Both the position numbers and the translations under genes were made by a program. A stretch of 59,975 bases of DNA, the filler included, from Asterionella formosa (Eukaryota): assembly GCA_002256025.1 (NCBI GenBank). It is 11 parts of 11 records of this genome, joined end to end, with 100 filler letters (N's around TTAATTAATTAA, not from the genome) between each part and the next. Parts side by side here need not be neighbours in the genome. Positions count along the whole stretch, not along the records: positions 27,205 to 32,589 come from NKIB01013091.1; 10 more parts are not named here. One strand, written 5' to 3'. This document shows, piece after piece, positions 5,146 through 32,746 of this stretch (within the stretch, counting starts at the first letter, position 1; each line of letters starts with the position of its first letter). The notes beneath the pieces are model-generated. The model was not told the DNA's origin. It worked only from the letters and a program-made list of their open reading frames with translations, and searched no databases.

Positions 5146-5245
5146 NNNNNNNNNNNNNNNNNNNNNNNNNNNNNNNNNNNNNNNNNNNNTTAATTAATTA
5201 ANNNNNNNNNNNNNNNNNNNNNNNNNNNNNNNNNNNNNNNNNNNN
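5146..5245. other. Artificial contig linker N44-TTAATTAATTAA-N44 (stops in all six frames). Also at 10645-10744, 16134-16233, 21620-21719, 27105-27204, 32590-32689, 38069-38168, 43547-43646, 49025-49124, 54502-54601
   Basis: Identical 100-nt spacer occurs ten times. Intervening contig lengths do not increase (5399, 5389, 5386, 5385, 5385, 5379, 5378, 5378, 5377). Confidence 0.98.
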
Positions 5246-16133: not shown

Positions 16134-16233
16134 NNNNNNNNNNNNNNNNNNNNNNNNNNNNNNNNNNNNNNNNNNNNTTAATTAATTAANNNNNNNNNNN
16201 NNNNNNNNNNNNNNNNNNNNNNNNNNNNNNNNN

Positions 16234-17314
16234 TATCGATTTGCAAGTTCCCAAGGTCAATACCCGTCGACACCAAGCACTTTTCACCCGTCAGTTTGCA
16301 ATTGCTCTCCAAGTGCAATAGAGTTTCCACCGGAGAGTCTTCTTTGACTTCACCACTCCTGCATACTAGAATAATGAGCACATGCTTCGATCTTGTATCC
16401 GTCAAAAGCGCTTTGATTATATCCACACTGGCAGTGTCTGCCCAATGGATGTCATCCAAAACGAAAATTATAGGATGCTTCTCTTTTGCAACAGCCCTTA
16501 AAAAGGCACGGCAGATCAATCGGAAGCGGGTTGAGCTTGGAGCACTGTAAGGCACAACATCCTGGTCCGAAAACGCGGAGCCTTTATCGTTTCCATCATT
16601 TATTATGATAGCGAGGTTTGAGATGAGCGATGTCATTCCTTTGCTGTCGTTTCCTAATGCCTCAGTGATCGCGTCTTTCATTTCGTCAAGCTCGTCGGAT
16701 TGCAATATCGCTTCACAAATTTCCGTAAAAGCATTCACGAGAGCAGAGAAGGGTTCATTCTTCGCCTGCAAATCGAACTTTCCGTACACGTAGTACGGTT
16801 CTTCGTCTCGTACTTGAACTGGGTTTCGAAGACTTTCGACCAACGCACTCTTCCCTGTTCCTGTAAATCCTTTGACAAAGACGACTTCAGAATCATGCCC
16901 TGGATCGCAAATACGCTGGTATGCGTTTTCCAACAGGGCGAGTTCATGTTCTCTGCCATAAATCCTAGATTCTGCAACGGAGAGTTTCCTGTCAAAGATG
17001 TTGTCTCTGTCAAAGAAATTTCCCATTGTAAGCGAGCTGATTACAGTTGTTCCATCAGAAGCCATACGAGGAAAAAGTAATAAATCTCTTCCGACAAAGT
17101 CATGAACATTCGAAGGGTTGAGACTCATATCGTAGTTCTCCAACGAAGACTGATTTCGTAATGGCCTCGTGATGGTCGCGTCCTCTGGAAGTATATTCCA
17201 TTTATTCTCGATTTGTCCCGTCGTCATGATCACTTCGGATGACGAATTATTGCTGTATTTCAGCTCGTCCTCATCGTCAACCGCAACAAGGGGTTCTGGA
17301 GTCATGGTTTCCAT
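16234..17314 (-). CDS. STAND/AAA_16-type ATPase domain protein, 3' truncated
   Basis: IYGREHEL, Walker A GFTGTGKS, GKFD..EPFSA and Walker B FVLDDIHWAD. ORF runs into the linker. Confidence 0.8.
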
Positions 17315-17415
17315 TGTATTAATTGATCTTTGGTTAATTTTTTTGATTGGTCTTTCGTTAATTTTTGTGATGGTGGACAAACAAAATATAAAGTCGATTT
17401 GAATTTCTGTACAGC

Positions 17416-27104: not shown

Positions 27105-28678
27105 NNNNNNNNNNNNNNNNNNNNNNNNNNNNNNNNNNNNNNNNNNNNTTAATTAATTAANNNNNNNNNNNNNNNNNNNNNNNNNNNNNNNNNNNNNNNN
27201 NNNNAAAGCTGGTATAGGAGCTCGGAAGAAACATGGTCAAACCCACATAATTTGATGAGCAGAGCATCATCATGCTTGCTGTTGAACAAAGTCCAGAAAG
27301 GACTTGACAATGGATGCTGTAGTGCATGGTGCCGGATTTGGCCATTTCTTCTTCTGACCTCATCAACAAGAACGTTGGCGTCTTGTTGCTGACTGAAGGA
27401 TCACACATTGCTAACAGAAGCAATGCGATAATATTGTCATCATTGTCCGGAGGAGATGAGAGGAAATCCGACATTGTCGGCAACTGATGATGATGAATAT
27501 ATAGAACTCCTGCATACAATGAACAGGTAGGATAGCATAGATGAGGATGCAATCATACGAAAATTTCACTGTTAACAATTATAGTTAAATATATACTTTA
27601 TGTCAGATAAGTAATATAAAAATATCTCGATTATCAAACCGTAATGACGACATTATGTATCAAATCGCCAAAACAATTTTTGATTTAATACATACATGAA
27701 ATAAAAATTTTGTATTATCAGGCAGAGCGTGCCAAAATTATATCTTAGTGTCTTTTATAACACAAATTGTTGTACTAATAGCCCAAAAATTTGTGTTTGT
27801 GTTGCCCAAATTTGGTAGCTCAGGTTTGCACCTCAAATGTTATTACATAAATACATAGTAGCTGTGGATGACCACCAGTGTGATGATCAGATATCAATTG
27901 ATTGACAATCTAAATGTGTCCCTTTTCTATCTGGAATATACTGAGTAATTACACCATGCTAATAATATGATGATTCGAATCTTCACTCATTGGATATTTT
28001 GGATTCCTCCTTCAGAAGAATTTTTGTTCCATTTCTATCCCGCAACAATCTTCATGTGTATGCTGAGACAAACAAGATGGATTGGTTTTATCCATGCATT
28101 CTCGGTGCCAAAATACAATAGAGGGAACACCAACACTTCAAATGTCATCTCAAGGGTGCAATATAAATTTAGCATCCTAATATCTTCCTATAGTTAACTA
28201 TTTTCATTTTAATTATCAAGCAATTTTTGGGTCCCCCTTCTGACATGAAATGACTGCCTACCATGATGACATAATGAAAAAGTAAAATAACTTTCTGAAA
28301 AATAGGGAACTCATTGTAAGCAATTTCAGGCATCACTCTCACAGCTACAGGGACGATGCTGAAGAAATGCTTATGGCCCATGAGTCCCATTCTTCTTGCA
28401 GCATTACAATTTTAAAATGCCCCACAATTTTTGCTGGAGTCAAAAATGGGATGAAAATAGAGGATTAGTATACAATTTGTCAGTCAGAATGAAAAAAATG
28501 TTGTCAATGCCCTGGCATCTTTACCTAATATGTTCATGTGAAGTGCTTCATGTGGGTTAGGTTCTTACTATTAACTATTCTGTGGCAAGTTCCGATGTGA
28601 AATCTACTTGGAAATGTTGGATTGAAAGTCAAAATTTAGGGCACTCGAACAGTGGCTGGTGAGGCTCATTTAGGAAGG

Positions 28679-31600
28679 TTAAACCTCCTTGGATTTAAGA
28701 CTTCGCCGTTTTCGATGGGCATCCAATGCAAATCGATGACTTTCGTCTCGCAAGGACCTCAGTAGAAGTAGCCCTGGCGAGTCGGGGGAATTATTCACAG
28801 GGATGCTATGACCAGGGACAAATATTTCTTCTTTTGATTTCGCCAAAGCGCAAATGGGAACATGAGTGCATTGAGATGAGATCATGACATGGGTGTTGTT
28901 CTCAAACTTAAGTATGATTTCTTCCTCCAAAATATCTTCTTCCTTCACTTTTGAGGGCACGTGATATCCCAAATACGGCAATGCTGGAGGAAACACGCCG
29001 GCCTTTGTCATGCCCTTGATGGCCGCTCCGAGCTGACCAACCCCTCCATCAATAACAACAAGGTCAGGGAGAGCCCATGGGTCATCTTGGTGGACTAGCT
29101 CGCCTCTTTCATGTTCCCAGACGTGATGAAAACGTCGTTCGAGGACTTCTTCGAGGCTTGCATAGTCGTTGTTCCCTTCAACGGTCTTGATATTGAACTT
29201 CCTGTAAAGCATAGGGGAAGGCTTCCCATCGATAAAAACCACCCGTGAACCAACAGCAACCTCTCCCTGGGTATGGCTGATATCATAACACTCAATTCTA
29301 CGTGGAGGTTTTTCCAAACAAAGCATGGATACGAGTTCCGACATGGCAGTGCCATCAATTGAAGACCTCGTTGCGCCCACGACCGTACTTTGCTGCCACT
29401 CCAGAGCTGCTTGGTTTGCATTGCCCAATGCGAATTCCAATGCCCGAGCATCGGTTTCTTTTCTTGGACCCCGAGTTGCCGGATTTCGAATCTTCAGATT
29501 GGCGCTACTGTTGGGTTCCACTTTGGTTCTTGCTATCTTGACAGCCTTCTTAAGTTCGTTTTCGTTTTCGATTGGGAACTGTGACAAGATCTCATCCGGA
29601 AAGAAAGTAAATTTACATCCACCGCTTTCTTCTCCCGAAGGATAGTGCTGTCGTTCAAGGACGGCTTGAATCACGGCAGACATGTCCTCTTCTGTCGAAA
29701 AGCCTGACTGGAGCTCGCAGGAGTAGGAAAAGCGACCAGCCACCAAACCCTCTCGCATTTGTACCACATGAACCAACAAATTGTTTTCATCGTTTTCGGC
29801 ATGTCCAATTGCAACAACATCTCGACACTTGTTATCGGCACTAGTAAAGAGTAAATTGGCCTCTTCGTATTCAGAACGCATCTCCACTAATTGACTGTTG
29901 TTAGCACCCGCTTCGAATACCTCAACCATTGCTAGATTAAACATCTCTGCGTACTCTGTCTGGGTACAGTCACCGTGACGGGCTGCAAACGACTTTGCTC
30001 GAAGGCTGTAAGTTTCTTCGATTTCTCCCAGAAGTGCATTTATCTCCTGGAAGTGAGGATATGGACCAAAGTATCTATATTTCGAAGCTTTCTCTCCAGT
30101 TTGCCTTCTTGGAGATGAAAAGAAGCGAGGAAATTTATCTCCTATGGATGCACAAATATATGGATAAGTCTCATCATCTTTGAGAAGCACGTTGTAAAGG
30201 GGTTGATGGTGCTTGATAAGATTTGACTCTAAAATCAACGCATCGCGAACGCTTGGTGTAAGAACAAAGTCAAGGGTGGTAGATTTAGCAATCATTGTCT
30301 TGATCCTAGAGCTGTGCTTGGCATTCGGTGATAGGTATGATTGGACACGATTTCGAAGTTTTTTTGCTTTACCAATGTACAGAATGTTGCCTTGTCCATC
30401 CTTCCAAAAGTAGACACCAGGTTTTGAGGGTAAATTACCAGTAACGACGGAGATCCTGTCAGCGGTCAGTGGTAGAGGAACTTCAACCCTTTCTGTTTCT
30501 TGTAGACATTTTCGAGATTTCGTCGAGCCATCGGAGCGGTCGAAAGCCTCAGTCTGCTCTCGTTGATCTTTGATTTCGTCTCGTAGTAAATCAAAGATTG
30601 ACATCATTGTTGAGCCTTCCGTCGATATTGGCTTGCATCCAATAGCTTCATTGTATGCCAACTGCTTCTCCCGTCGTCGCTTGGTATCCTCAATAGTTTT
30701 CTGCATGCTATCAGTTATTCTGTCCGCATAAAATATTGCAGCTCCGTTCGAATTTCTCGCTGCTCTCCCAATAGTTTGAAGCAAAGCGGTGTGAGAGCGA
30801 AACAAGCCTGCAGAATCGGCGTTGAGGATGGCAACGAGAGAGACTTGAGGAAGATCTAAACCTTCTCGCAGCAAATTAATCCCAACAAGGCAATCCACTT
30901 CACCATTTTGGAGTGATCTGATTGCATTAGAACGTTCGTGTGTTGTTAGATCACAGTGAATAAACGTAGCCAAGACCCCCTCCTTACCCAAGAAAGTCGC
31001 AAGATCCTCTGCGTCCCTCTTGGAGATGGCCATAGCCAACGTTCTTTCATTTCGGCTAGCTCTTTTCTTGATTTCATTCACCAAATCAGCAAGCTGACCT
31101 CGCGAAGGTCTAATATCAATCTCCGGGTCGCAAATAAATGTTGGACGGATCACCATTTCGACTGGAGGTCGCTGACTCTTCTCAAGTTCGTAATTTGCAG
31201 GTGTCGCTGAAACGAAGACAGCCTGACCAACTTGCTTCCAAAATTCCTCCTCTTGTAGTGGTCGATTGTCCATTGCTGATGGCAGGCGAAATCCATGCTT
31301 CACTAACATCTCTTTCCTTGATCGATCGCCTCGGTACATGGTCTTAAGCTGTGGTAAGGTCACGTGCGACTCATCCACGATGAGCAACCAGTCTCCATCT
31401 GCAGACATTTTTAAATAGTCGATCAGGGTATCAGGAGCTTCTCCTGCCGCTCGTTTGGAGAAATGTCGTGAGTAATTTTCAGCTCCGTTACAAAATCCAG
31501 TTTCTCTTAGCAGGATTAAATCATTTGATACGCCCATCTGTAACCTCTTAGATTGCTCCTCCATCTTTAGGAAGTTCAACTCTTGGACTCGATCTCGCAT

Positions 31601-32589
31601 TTCGGCTTCAATGGCTAGACAAGCTTCTTCTCGTATGTCTTCATTAAAAACATGATGTTTAGCAGGGAAAATACGAATTGAAGACGCAGTAAATTTTTCT
31701 TCTTCGAAGTCGATTCCATCTATGGATGATACTTGCACTGTGTCCCCTACGCCGTTGAATCGAACGGATAGAGGAAATCTTTCTTGTGGCGGCCAGATCG
31801 ACAGAACGTGACCTGCTGGTCCGGCAGCAAGTTGATAGTTCCCACGGAGCATCTCGCCTGGATCCTCAGGTCGTGTGTATAGCATTTTTTCCAAATTTGC
31901 AATCAGATCAAGTGAGCGCATAGTATCGCCAACAGTCATGATCGTTGACGCTGCGAGATATTCTGCCGGCAGTCCTAGTCCATATATACACGATACACTG
32001 GCGACTATTACGACATCTCGCCTCTCAAGTAAAGCCCTGGTTGCGCGATGTCTCAATGCGTCAATTTCTTCATTGACCGACGACTTTTTGCCAAAATATT
32101 TCCCAGTAGTTTCAAGAAACGCTTCTGGCTTAAAGTAGTTGTAGTAACTAACAAACAACTCGACCGCATTCTTCTTGAGAAAGCTACGAAGTTCTCTTGC
32201 CAATTGGGCTGCCAATGTTTTGTTGTGACATAGCACCAGTGTCGGCTTGTTTGCGTGACAAATAACATGTGACATGACAAACGTTTTGCCAGTTCCAGTG
32301 ATCCCGCGCAAGGTTGAGAATTTGTCCCCCTCCTCCAGCTGCTGAATGAGTTGTCGAATCGCTTCTGGTTGGTCACCGGTTGGTTCATAGGGAGCTGTCA
32401 CTTCAAAGGGACGTGTCAAGGGTCTAAGCGAGGGATGCGAAGATTCGGTTTCGCCTGCCGCCACAAAGAATGATCGAAATTTGCCGCCGACAGCTGCGAC
32501 GCAGAATGATAACGGCGAGGGCCGTGGATACAGGCGATTTCGGCGTAACGATGATTGAAATGCTCGCGATGCAGTAGAGAATGAAGAAG
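28679..32589 (-). CDS. uvrB/uvrC: UvrB-UvrC fusion excinuclease with N-terminal plastid-like presequence, 5' truncated
   Basis: UvrB motifs: PTGDQPEAI, GITGTGKT, HNKTLAAQL, FVSYYNYFKPEA, DESH, RLPSAMDNRPL, SATP, NLLREGLDLP, QTIGRAARN. UvrC motifs: GIY-YIG LPSKPGVY..ILYIGKAKKLRNRV, YFGPY, RIECYDISH, DYASL, PDLVVIDGG, LAK, LRDESHRFA. One uninterrupted frame, open upstream to the contig edge. Confidence 0.93.
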
Positions 32590-32689
32590 NNNNNNNNNNN
32601 NNNNNNNNNNNNNNNNNNNNNNNNNNNNNNNNNTTAATTAATTAANNNNNNNNNNNNNNNNNNNNNNNNNNNNNNNNNNNNNNNNNNNN

Positions 32690-32746
32690 TGGAGCAAAAG
32701 CATCGGATAACACCAGCAAGAAGGCAACGGTTGAGAATGCATTCAT
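32690..32746 (-). CDS. N-terminus of an unidentified plastid-targeted protein (truncated)
   Basis: MNAFSTVAFLLVLSDAFAP: signal peptide plus ASAFAP-type motif, cut by the linker. Confidence 0.55.

Follow-up and report, generated by a model that had tools for sequence, protein, structure and literature searches.

A freshwater diatom, Asterionella formosa, carries a genuine, expressed nuclear gene in which UvrB and UvrC, two proteins of bacterial excision repair, are joined in a single chain. Given a leader that follows the plastid pattern and a conserved UvrB-UvrC catalytic set, we consider the best reading to be that this polypeptide is imported into the plastid and carries out excision repair of chloroplast DNA, a role that we regard as probable and whose location and activity we infer.

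The window (that is, the whole stretch of DNA analysed, 59,975 nucleotides with filler included) consists of 11 separate contigs of ~5.4 kb each, joined by linkers of the form N44+TTAATTAATTAA+N44 according to the N-run map. As the gene's own contig is only 27205-32589, nothing else in the window counts as a genomic neighbour of the gene, and the window ORFs assigned to DTW, STAND/AAA_16 and FMN reductase, which lie on other contigs, were rejected as gene context. The locus comprises the following features.

27205-32589, no strand assigned: contig carrying the fusion gene (N-run map)
28682-32589, minus strand: fusion coding sequence, 5′-partial (translation, N-terminus of P0002, collinear RNA contigs)
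28679-28681, minus strand: stop codon (ORF list, RNA contig)

The frame (28682-32589, minus strand) contains no stop and runs off the contig end on its 5′ side, and translation of 28682-32587 gives a stop-free protein of 1302 residues (P0001). The ORF list enters the gene as 28679..32464 with a GTG start and 1261 aa; upstream of this GTG, the frame remains open as far as 32587/32589. The original prediction of a single frame of ~1300 aa that joins UvrB to UvrC and stays open to the contig edge therefore stands, in that both halves are matched by profiles and the edge is real, with the N-linker starting at 32590. Judging from the N-terminus of a 100%-identical protein (P0002), the contig lacks the start codon and ~10 (or 33) codons at the 5′ end of the gene, and the complete polypeptide would have about 1310-1335 residues. 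A peptide past the gap (MNAFSTVAFLLVLSDAFAP, 32690-32745, minus strand) was rejected as the true gene start, given that it lies on another contig and that the P0002 N-terminus differs. From its N-terminus to its C-terminus, the protein divides into the following parts.

32408-32587, minus strand: visible presequence, residues 1-60 (translation, P0002, family leader scan)
30623-32407, minus strand: UvrB core with domains 1a, 2, 1b and 3, residues 61-655 (Pfam, NCBIfam, structure-sequence match, conservation)
31655-31951, minus strand: UvrB domain 2, residues 213-311 (Pfam PF17757, alignment)
30443-30622, minus strand: B-C linker at the place of the bacterial UvrB UVR domain, residues 656-715 (alignment, predicted structure)
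30173-30442, minus strand: UvrC GIY-YIG 3′-incision nuclease, residues 716-805 (Pfam, structure match, conservation)
29822-30172, minus strand: remodelled middle region, residues 806-922 (alignment; motif definition from PMC10085695)
29408-29821, minus strand: UvrC central RNase H-like platform domain, PF22920, residues 923-1060 (Pfam, predicted structure)
28727-29326, minus strand: UvrC C-terminal RNase H-type 5′-incision nuclease, PF08459, residues 1088-1287 (Pfam, structure match)

Against the NCBIfam UvrB equivalog NF003673, the UvrB half scores 750.3 bits (cut-off 743; residues 61-683), and against TIGR00631 (UvrB) 739.1 bits, slightly below the cut-off of 750.1; it matches Bacillus caldotenax UvrB (2fdc) with 588 bits over residues 61-689, and Pfam recognizes ResIII (69-194), Helicase_C (500-612) and UvrB PF12344 (619-655). 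The SF2 ATPase motifs are present (Walker A GTGKT at 98-102, DESH at 405-408 and motif VI QTIGRAARN at 604-612), as is the β-hairpin (VSYYNYFKPEAF, 146-157), which has aromatic residues at its base and aligns to the hairpin of 2fdc. Domain 2, which in bacteria is the contact domain for UvrA and Mfd, has diverged: the segment is present in the alignment and scores 17.7 bits against PF17757 (cut-off 22.9), and its identity is 0.16 between diatoms and bacteria versus 0.24 among bacteria. Relative to the other domains, it shows no greater relaxation among diatoms than among bacteria, and drift of this kind speaks neither for a UvrA partner nor against one; the proposal that domain 2 had relaxed and that UvrA had thus been lost was withdrawn, as the bacterial control is equally conserved in relative terms. 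In bacterial UvrB, a C-terminal UVR domain (domain 4) docks UvrC. The fusion protein has no Pfam match to this domain (PF02151), the UvrB profile match stops at position 608 of 653, and the GIY-YIG domain sits in the alignment where bacterial UvrB carries UVR. Between the two halves, linker residues 683-711 are predicted to be disordered (pLDDT <50).

The UvrC half spans residues 716-1290 with both nuclease sites included and scores 314.8 bits against the NCBIfam UvrC equivalog TIGR00194 (cut-off 285.45). Pfam places GIY-YIG at 723-799, UvrC_RNaseH (PF22920) at 923-1060 and UvrC_RNaseH_dom (PF08459) at 1088-1287 (E 4.8e-42), and the expected active-site residues are found in both the GIY-YIG domain (Y726, Y737, G739, R747, E787 and N799) and the DDH triad (D1102, D1180 and H1284). 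The predicted structure of residues 656-1302 has a mean pLDDT of 86.4 and resembles the UvrC RNase H domain 2nrr (TM 0.87 on target) and the GIY-YIG domain 1yd6 (TM 0.89), with a low-confidence acidic insert at ~1196-1240 inside the C-terminal nuclease.

Conservation across the family separates what has been kept from what has been lost. The 13 catalytic residues checked are invariant in 72/72 full-length fusions, among them the helicase D, E and H, the GIY-YIG residues Y726, Y737, R747, E787 and N799, and D1102, D1180 and H1284; the Walker A lysine is present in 69/72 and gapped in the remaining 3. Four modules are absent from all 13 aligned fusions: from UvrB, the UVR domain; from UvrC, the Cys4 block, one half of the UVR hairpin and the terminal (HhH)2. 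In place of the Cys4/FeS block, which is present in 4/4 bacterial UvrC, all 13 have a 19-residue gap and lack the Cys motif (tested as CX6-14CX3H/QX3CX3C; PMC10085695). The UvrC UVR hairpin retains its first helix, whereas the second is removed by a 15-residue gap, and Pfam gives no PF02151 match at this position. The protein stops 18 residues past H1284, without (HhH)2; all 13 fusions end at that point, whereas the four bacterial UvrC proteins continue for ~60 residues. In the one bacterial enzyme tested, Deinococcus radiodurans UvrC, removal of (HhH)2 weakens the 5′ incision, which is partly impaired, while dual incision is kept (PMC10085695).

We suggest that the chain would be read as a bipartite plastid leader, a UvrB damage-verification ATPase/helicase, a disordered tether predicted to be roughly 30-60 residues long, and a UvrC with both nucleases. 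Once the protein had entered the plastid stroma, its UvrB part would be loaded on damaged plastid DNA and would clamp the lesion strand behind its β-hairpin; the tethered UvrC may then cut on both sides, 3′ with the GIY-YIG nuclease and 5′ with the RNase H-type DDH site, after which a short damaged oligonucleotide could be removed. The covalent link may stand in for the UVR-UVR coiled coil through which bacterial UvrB recruits UvrC, and this replacement would be the reason why UvrB has lost its UVR domain and UvrC one half of its UVR, the Cys4/FeS block and (HhH)2.

The same losses could also be taken to indicate an organellar enzyme of another kind, namely a helicase-coupled, structure-specific nuclease that acts on stalled forks, flaps or R-loops, or degrades damaged plastid DNA, rather than excising lesions. 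Such an enzyme is assumed to work without UvrA and without the UVR, FeS and (HhH)2 modules, and all four accessory modules are indeed gone from every aligned fusion, domain 2 has drifted off the bacterial form, and in relatives from haptophytes and pelagophytes UvrB is accompanied by the RNase H-type nuclease alone, with HRDC added in one of them, so that the module set must be considered plastic. However, a UvrC without (HhH)2 still cuts twice (PMC10085695), and the β-hairpin aromatics, both nuclease sites and the helicase motifs, which together form the full dual-incision catalytic set, are strictly conserved. We therefore regard this nuclease reading as rather unlikely and retain lesion excision as the preferred role.

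The leader bears on where such excision would take place. The visible presequence contains the peptide SSFSTASRAFQSSLRRNRLYPRPSPLSF and no acidic residue ahead of residue 46, which bears out the acid-free, basic, Ser-rich segment that had been described after the F. In diatoms, an ASAFAP-type motif after the signal peptide marks the plastid import route, with an aromatic +1 residue (F or W, less often Y or L) following small residues. The N-terminus recovered from P0002 adds upstream residues and runs, in order, through a Met, a hydrophobic stretch, small residues, F and a basic stretch that is rich in Ser/Thr and free of acidic residues. Its alignment to P0003, the closest relative, places the likely signal-peptide cut at an S-S/F step right at the contig edge; of the cut site given in the original prediction, the small residues followed by F hold, but the cut itself is probably one motif upstream and not at S-R-A/F. 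The hydrophobic core is only ~7 residues long and satisfies a crude hydrophobicity rule only (a 7-residue Kyte-Doolittle mean of >=1.6 after a Met). Across the family, a strict rule (signal peptide, then F/W, then an acid-free stretch) is passed by 40 of the 59 usable N-termini, with F at +1 in 26 and W in 14, whereas 200 shuffles yielded 7.6 on average and never more than 14 (of 59). Per 20 residues, the segment after the site contains 0.20 D+E, 3.42 R+K and 4.17 S+T; the corresponding values for the mature part are 2.78, 2.55 and 2.59. The remaining 19 of 59 members fail the strict rule, in some cases probably on account of faulty gene models. Together, the Met and hydrophobic stretch in P0002 and the 40 passing members are consistent with a signal peptide at the full N-terminus. 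A Thalassiosira pseudonana plastid/mitochondrion proteome supplement has no entry for 'excinuclease', UvrA/B/C or GIY-YIG and thus lends no proteomic support, a blank that annotation wording or low abundance could account for.

A mitochondrial destination, alone or alongside the plastid (for example by way of the two in-frame Met codons), where the protein would serve the repair of mitochondrial DNA in place of or in addition to that of the plastid, is quite improbable in our view, as the signal peptide followed by F/W that recurs across the family (40/59) is a mark of the plastid route. What favours a mitochondrial or dual destination is an additional in-frame Met, located 21-23 codons ahead of the hydrophobic stretch in both P0002 and P0003, together with the description of dual targeting as ancestral and common in ochrophytes (PMC5462543); this upstream Met may, however, be 5′ UTR read through by the ORF caller.

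Transcripts document the gene directly. A poly(A) RNA contig (X4, 4563 nt) spans 28525-32589 uninterrupted and connects 28433 directly with 28525, which defines two further features.

28434-28524, minus strand: 3′ UTR spliceosomal intron, 91 nt, GT..AG (spliced in the poly(A) RNA contig, retained in the DNA contig)
28300-28433, minus strand: second 3′-UTR exon (RNA contig)

The RNA contig extends ~132 nt below 28300, and two metatranscriptome contigs (X8 and X9) cover 28554/28559-32589. The RNA contigs are collinear across 28525-32589, with 0 joints and 0 indels, and the B-C junction (30442-30541) is spanned without indels by three RNA contigs (two studies) and one DNA contig. The stretch is present in 20 of the 24 listed runs, 8 of which are RNA, from 13 studies. 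The gene had been described as intronless, which is true of the coding part, but the 3′ UTR has one intron; this eukaryotic gene structure and the spliced poly(A) transcript confirm the nuclear encoding of UvrB-UvrC that had been proposed.

The fusion is also widespread. We found it in diatoms (Cyclotella, Cylindrotheca, Seminavis, Nitzschia, Pseudo-nitzschia, Mayamaea, Thalassiosira, Epithemia and Amphora) and in the bolidophyte Triparma, and in addition in MMETSP transcripts and in the prasinophyte green alga Pycnococcus; orthologues with 49-55% identity lie on megabase contigs (1.3-4.8 Mb) of named diatom genomes. Although the window strings together short metagenome contigs and JGI annotates relatives as 'excinuclease ABC subunit B', the notion that the frame derives from bacterial contamination or from a chimeric assembly of adjacent uvrB and uvrC genes is refuted to the point of a negligible chance by these diatom-genome orthologues (and MMETSP transcripts marked complete), by the identical junction in RNA and DNA contigs from three studies and by the GT..AG intron spliced in poly(A) RNA, and the closest stand-alone bacterial UvrC is just 31-34% identical.

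In a UvrB tree that contained no labelled cyanobacterial UvrB, all 34 algal rows form one clade (UFBoot 100 / SH-aLRT 99), within which the B-C fusions (23 rows) form a clade of their own (100/95), and in a UvrC RNase H tree 22 B-C rows group with one reversed fusion (97/97). By its placement in these trees, the gene belongs to an algal UvrB-type clade with further members among red algae and pelagophytes and in a brown alga, a green alga and a haptophyte. In a quick tree, seven short UVR-less UvrBs adjoin the algal clade (SH-aLRT 97), and the named relatives of one of them (55-58% identity) are Planctomycetota; in the careful tree, the join has a bootstrap of only ~20-22, too low to name a bacterial donor. 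A genome-contig scan returned two loci, both in Flavobacteriales MAGs, too few for sampling.

Whether plastids have nucleotide excision repair is an old question, and a 2024 paper states that 'all eukaryotes lack UvrABC genes' (PMC11228841), while a 2006 GIY-YIG survey counted eukaryotic UvrC at 0/318. We found no account of an algal UvrB, an algal UvrC or their fusion in the literature, although subscription journals or supplements may mention one, and the main text of Dorrell et al. 2017 contains neither 'uvr' nor 'excinuclease'. In the diatom gene, the full catalytic set of UvrB and UvrC is encoded in the nucleus, expressed, conserved and preceded by a plastid-type leader, and as diatoms are genetically tractable (Phaeodactylum and Thalassiosira), the plastid repair question becomes directly testable. 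A natural single-chain UvrBC without UVR docking domains, FeS block or (HhH)2 also offers structural and single-molecule studies a minimal construct with which to follow how DNA passes from UvrB to UvrC, and the gene family marks algal lineages through a diatom-prasinophyte link and two independent fusion orders. More tentatively, and with considerable doubt, we raise the possibility that diatom chloroplast genomes are kept by a minimal one-chain excinuclease that needs no UvrA (that is, a hard-wired form of the E. coli UvrBC route), as one branch of an unreported plastid Uvr system of red and brown algae, haptophytes, pelagophytes, diatoms and a prasinophyte in which UvrB and UvrC were fused at least twice, in opposite orders. 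If true, such a UvrA-free plastid excinuclease would serve diatoms and hence much of ocean primary production.

Compared with bacterial UvrB and UvrC (2fdc; Thermotoga maritima 2nrt/1ycz; D. radiodurans 8b0q), the diatom protein has the helicase motifs, β-hairpin, GIY-YIG residues and DDH triad in common, but combines in a single chain what bacteria divide between two proteins, is missing the UVR domain of UvrB, the Cys4/FeS block and (HhH)2, has a halved UvrC UVR, carries an import leader and is encoded by a nuclear gene of eukaryotic structure. Stand-alone UvrBs of Porphyridium purpureum (P0305), Cyanidiococcus (P0431) and Cladosiphon (P0288) fall in the same algal clade (100/99) and, according to database entries, are nuclear-encoded, have long N-terminal extensions and are unfused to UvrC; the red algal proteins (P0305 and P0431) keep the UVR domain (Pfam), whereas Cladosiphon has merely a UVR-like C-terminal stretch, seen by eye, and we found no paper on the red or brown algal proteins. 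The reverse-order fusions (Prymnesium parvum P0291, Aureoumbra lagunensis P0326 and P0314) place the UvrC RNase H nuclease before UvrB and belong to the algal clade but lie outside the B-C clade; no GIY-YIG was found in them at E<=1e-5, and P0291 carries an HRDC domain after UvrB. The only plant 'uvrB/C' candidate, AT2G03390, has been cited as a possible sign of excision repair in plastids (PMC4824065), yet it matches the short UVR motif alone, has its own YccV domain and is without helicase or nuclease, and hence is no homologue of the catalytic parts of the fusion. Finally, the E. coli UvrBC complex, which is reported to find UV lesions without UvrA (PMC5814901), resembles the fusion as a UvrB-UvrC unit that acts as one lesion-finding and cutting entity; UvrA-free lesion finding is a feature of the E. 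coli complex, which is non-covalent and a minor back-up route, whereas the algal fusion is covalent and fixed in its lineage.

The ORF track places the UvrB–UvrC fusion gene at 28679..32464 on the minus strand (GTG start, 1261 aa), and the same frame is open upstream as far as 32587/32589, where an N-run starts, as the original prediction had it. Translation of 28682–32587 gives a stop-free protein of 1302 residues (P0001). In Pfam, its first half matches ResIII, Helicase_C and the UvrB-specific PF12344, and its second half GIY-YIG, UvrC_RNaseH (PF22920) and UvrC_RNaseH_dom (PF08459, E 4.8e-42). In NCBIfam, the UvrB equivalog NF003673 scores 750.3 bits over residues 61–683 (cut-off 743), TIGR00631 falls below its cut-off (739.1 versus 750.1) and the UvrC equivalog TIGR00194 scores 314.8 bits from residue 716 onward (cut-off 285.45). 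Against solved structures, the UvrB half matches B. caldotenax UvrB (2fdc; 588 bits, residues 61–689) and the UvrC half matches the GIY-YIG fragment 1yd6 and the C-terminal fragments 2nrr, 2nrt and 8b0q. Pfam, NCBIfam and structure matches thus confirm the prediction that a single frame joins a UvrB core to UvrC nuclease domains.

Of the 24 public runs listed, 20 contain the stretch, among them 17 with half or more of its words and 8 RNA runs; the 20 derive from 13 studies of freshwater, lake or algal metagenomes. Among contigs from four runs aligned to 28300–32589, a poly(A) RNA-seq contig of 4563 nt (X4) covers 28525–32589 unbroken, differing at 5 letters and lacking indels, two metatranscriptome contigs from another study (X8 and X9) cover 28554/28559–32589, and a DNA contig from a third study (X6) covers 29797–32589. 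Three RNA contigs and one DNA contig therefore run across the junction at which the halves meet (residues 683–716; window 30442–30541), which answers the question of whether reads or transcripts cross it. X4 also connects 28433 directly to 28525, and the skipped 91 nt have a GT start and an AG end on the minus strand, which identifies them as a spliceosomal intron; it lies in the 3′ UTR, 154 nt beyond the stop codon, and is retained in a second DNA contig. The visible coding part has no intron, as originally described. The gene is eukaryotic, and we regard the fusion as almost certainly real and expressed.

N-runs of the form N44 + TTAATTAATTAA + N44 recur every ~5.4–5.5 kb along the window, and the pieces between them slowly decrease in length; this regularity and the falling lengths show that the window consists of 11 separate metagenome-bin contigs placed end to end.

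Linkers, starting at 5146, 10645, 16134, 21620, 27105, 32590, 38069, 43547, 49025 and 54502 (span 5146–54601)
27205–32589, contig carrying the UvrB–UvrC fusion gene

Gene-neighbourhood readings across the linkers are thus void, and nothing outside 27205–32589 is a neighbour of the fusion gene. A peptide at 32690–32745 (minus strand) was rejected as the start of the gene because it lies on another contig past the gap. The ORF there begins MNAFSTVAFLLVLSDAFAP and stays open up to the end of its contig; with an apparent signal peptide and A-F-A-P, it resembles the leader of another, putatively plastid-targeted protein, the body of which is missing. On a different contig, an ORF at 16178–17380 (minus strand) has AAA_16 / STAND-type NTPase matches (E 3.6e-31).

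Proteins with both halves numbered well over 60 among the matches listed in the first search. The fusion occurs in the diatoms Cyclotella cryptica, Cylindrotheca closterium, Seminavis robusta, Nitzschia inconspicua, Nitzschia sp. Nitz4, Pseudo-nitzschia multistriata, Mayamaea, Thalassiosira profunda, Epithemia and Amphora (several of these named-diatom fusions sit on contigs of 1.3–4.8 Mb), and also in the bolidophyte Triparma and in MMETSP transcripts marked complete. Across 72 full-length fusions, 12 of 13 checked catalytic residues are invariant (D, E and H of DESH; Y, Y, G, R, E and N of GIY-YIG; D, D and H of the RNase H site), and 69 have the Walker A lysine, the remaining 3 being gapped there. 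In a wider search of 1.84 billion cluster representatives, with Pfam scans and cluster names, the same fusion was found in the green alga Pycnococcus provasolii (P0418). This prasinophyte shares the UvrB-then-UvrC order with ochrophytes (clade support 100/95), possibly another case of the debated green–ochrophyte gene link. The reverse order (UvrC RNase H nuclease, then UvrB) is found in the haptophyte Prymnesium parvum (P0291, with a C-terminal HRDC domain), in the pelagophyte Aureoumbra lagunensis (P0326) and in P0314; no GIY-YIG was detected at E ≤ 1e-5 in these three, which represent a second, independent joining of UvrB and UvrC modules in algae. Stand-alone, nuclear-encoded UvrBs with N-terminal extensions of 200–390 residues occur in Porphyridium purpureum (P0305), Cyanidiococcus (P0431/P0283) and Cladosiphon (P0288). 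In the red algal proteins (Porphyridium purpureum and Cyanidiococcus), Pfam still detects a UVR domain, implying a separate UvrC partner in these algae; for the brown alga Cladosiphon, all that was noted, by eye, was a UVR-like stretch at the C-terminus.

The N-terminus is recovered in P0002, a protein of 1335 aa that is 100% identical over the whole query and adds 33 residues upstream; its 4563-nt source contig is probably the same RNA contig as X4. P0002 has two in-frame Met codons as candidate starts and reads MVLPFLFYQPSSFSTASRAF from the second; at the corresponding position, the closest relative (P0003, 72% identical) has MAFSLLLSRASAFQAGSRA. This alignment places the likely signal-peptide cut behind a pair of serines, so that F is at +1; the S-R-A/F step originally proposed lies one motif further downstream. 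Of 59 fusions with a Met-initial N-terminal extension of at least 35 residues, 50 pass a looser rule (Met, hydrophobic heptad, one of A, S, G or C, then F/W/Y/L; shuffles: mean 19.4, maximum 27) and 40 pass a strict rule (F or W only; 26 F and 14 W; 200 shuffles: mean 7.6, maximum 14). Acidic residues number 0.20, basic ones 3.42 and Ser/Thr 4.17 in the 20 residues after the site, compared with 2.78, 2.55 and 2.59 per 20 residues in the mature part. We take this pattern to be the ASAFAP-type bipartite leader signature for import of nuclear-encoded proteins into the stroma of four-membrane plastids; unlike these leaders, that of Pycnococcus (primary plastid) is simple and Ser-rich. Against a plastid destination stand the short hydrophobic core of the Asterionella leader, the 19 fusions that fail the strict rule and the lack of a matching entry in the T. 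pseudonana organelle-proteome supplement. Nevertheless, the leader pattern in the 40 fusions supports the predicted import as far as sequence goes, and we consider the fusion likely to be plastid-targeted.

In a UvrB-domain tree (81 rows, 581 columns; careful IQ-TREE search under LG+G4, with bootstrap values not fully settled), the 34 algal rows all group in a single clade (UFBoot 100 / SH-aLRT 99), within which the 23 rows with UvrB before UvrC form another (100/95) and the diatoms a starred group of 12 (97/96). The set had no labelled cyanobacterial UvrB, and the bacterial sister of the algal clade is not fixed by the tree: 7 short, UVR-less UvrBs joined that clade in a quick tree (SH-aLRT 97), a placement with a bootstrap of only ~20 in the careful one, and the named relatives of one of them (55–58% identity) are Planctomycetota. 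A group of short bacterial UvrBs of 583–650 aa comprises P0316, P0328, P0342, P0355, P0363, P0373, P0384 and P0448–P0456; relatives of P0316 are ~600 aa long without a UVR domain, and one is named Thermoguttaceae, its nearest full-length relatives being Planctomycetota. In a UvrC RNase H tree (61 rows, 175 columns), in which long branches advise caution, the 22 UvrB-then-UvrC rows and one reversed fusion group together at 97/97, separate from 37 bacterial UvrCs; among stand-alone bacterial UvrCs, the nearest are only 31–34% identical and represent several phyla (Chloroflexota, a cyanobacterium and Peptococcaceae). Together, the two trees indicate that both halves point to one ancestral fusion.

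When 13 fusions were aligned with 2 bacterial UvrBs and 4 bacterial UvrCs, all 13 proved to lack the same four elements: the C-terminal UVR domain of UvrB (its place occupied by the GIY-YIG domain), the UvrC Cys-rich block (a gap of 19 residues without a Cys motif), the second helix of the UVR hairpin of UvrC (a gap of 15 residues) and the (HhH)2 tail, the chain ending 18 residues after the catalytic His. Consistent with this, Pfam found no UVR and no HhH in P0001, whereas the nearest bacterial UvrCs carry PF02151, PF14520/PF12826 and PF27096. An AlphaFold model of residues 656–1302 (70-row alignment; mean pLDDT 86.4, pTM 0.69) matches, in Foldseek, the UvrC RNase H domain (2nrr, TM 0.87 on target; 3c65, 0.80) and the GIY-YIG domain (1yd6, 0.89). 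Its low-confidence stretch (model residues 28–56, that is, P0001 residues 683–711) is read as a flexible tether. The RNase H-type domain also holds a lineage-specific insert (pLDDT ~51) that is variable or absent in other fusions.

28968–29102, minus strand, acidic insert of ~45 residues inside the RNase H-type domain (P0001 ~1196–1240)

Orthologues are public under automatic names (for example, 'Excinuclease ABC subunit B' and 'UvrABC system protein B'), and a full-text literature search found no paper describing an algal UvrB, UvrC or fusion, although subscription journals and supplements could mention one. A 2006 GIY-YIG survey counted 318 UvrC and 0 eukaryotic ones; the main text of an ochrophyte plastid-proteome paper does not mention UvrB/UvrC (PMC5462543), the plant 'uvrB/C' is a UVR-motif protein only (PMC4824065), and a 2024 paper states that 'all eukaryotes lack UvrABC genes' (PMC11228841). 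The fusion is a bacterial-type excinuclease contracted into a single chain; it is encoded in the nucleus, very probably sent to the plastid, and belongs to a broader family of algal Uvr genes that appears to be undescribed.

Domain 2, which contacts UvrA/Mfd in bacteria, shows the lowest conservation within the UvrB half (consensus frequency 0.44 versus 0.71–0.80 in 72 fusions). A special relaxation in fusions was rejected, given that the bacterial control has the same ratio (0.24 versus 0.42–0.48; diatoms, 0.30 versus 0.58–0.65). The domain has drifted from the bacterial form (identity 0.16 diatom-to-bacterium versus 0.24 among bacteria), which indicates nothing on UvrA. We lean towards the fusion performing lesion excision on plastid DNA, and the repair role originally suggested is supported to the extent that sequence can take it. 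The covalent tether would render the UVR–UVR docking contact between UvrB and UvrC redundant, which would account for the disappearance of both UVR parts. When it lacks (HhH)2, D. radiodurans UvrC still incises on both sides of a lesion, with the 3′ cut intact and the 5′ cut partly impaired (PMC10085695), so the missing tail is compatible with function in the fusion. In E. coli, the UvrBC complex can locate UV lesions without UvrA (PMC5814901), and by analogy a UvrA-free mode is conceivable for the fusion.
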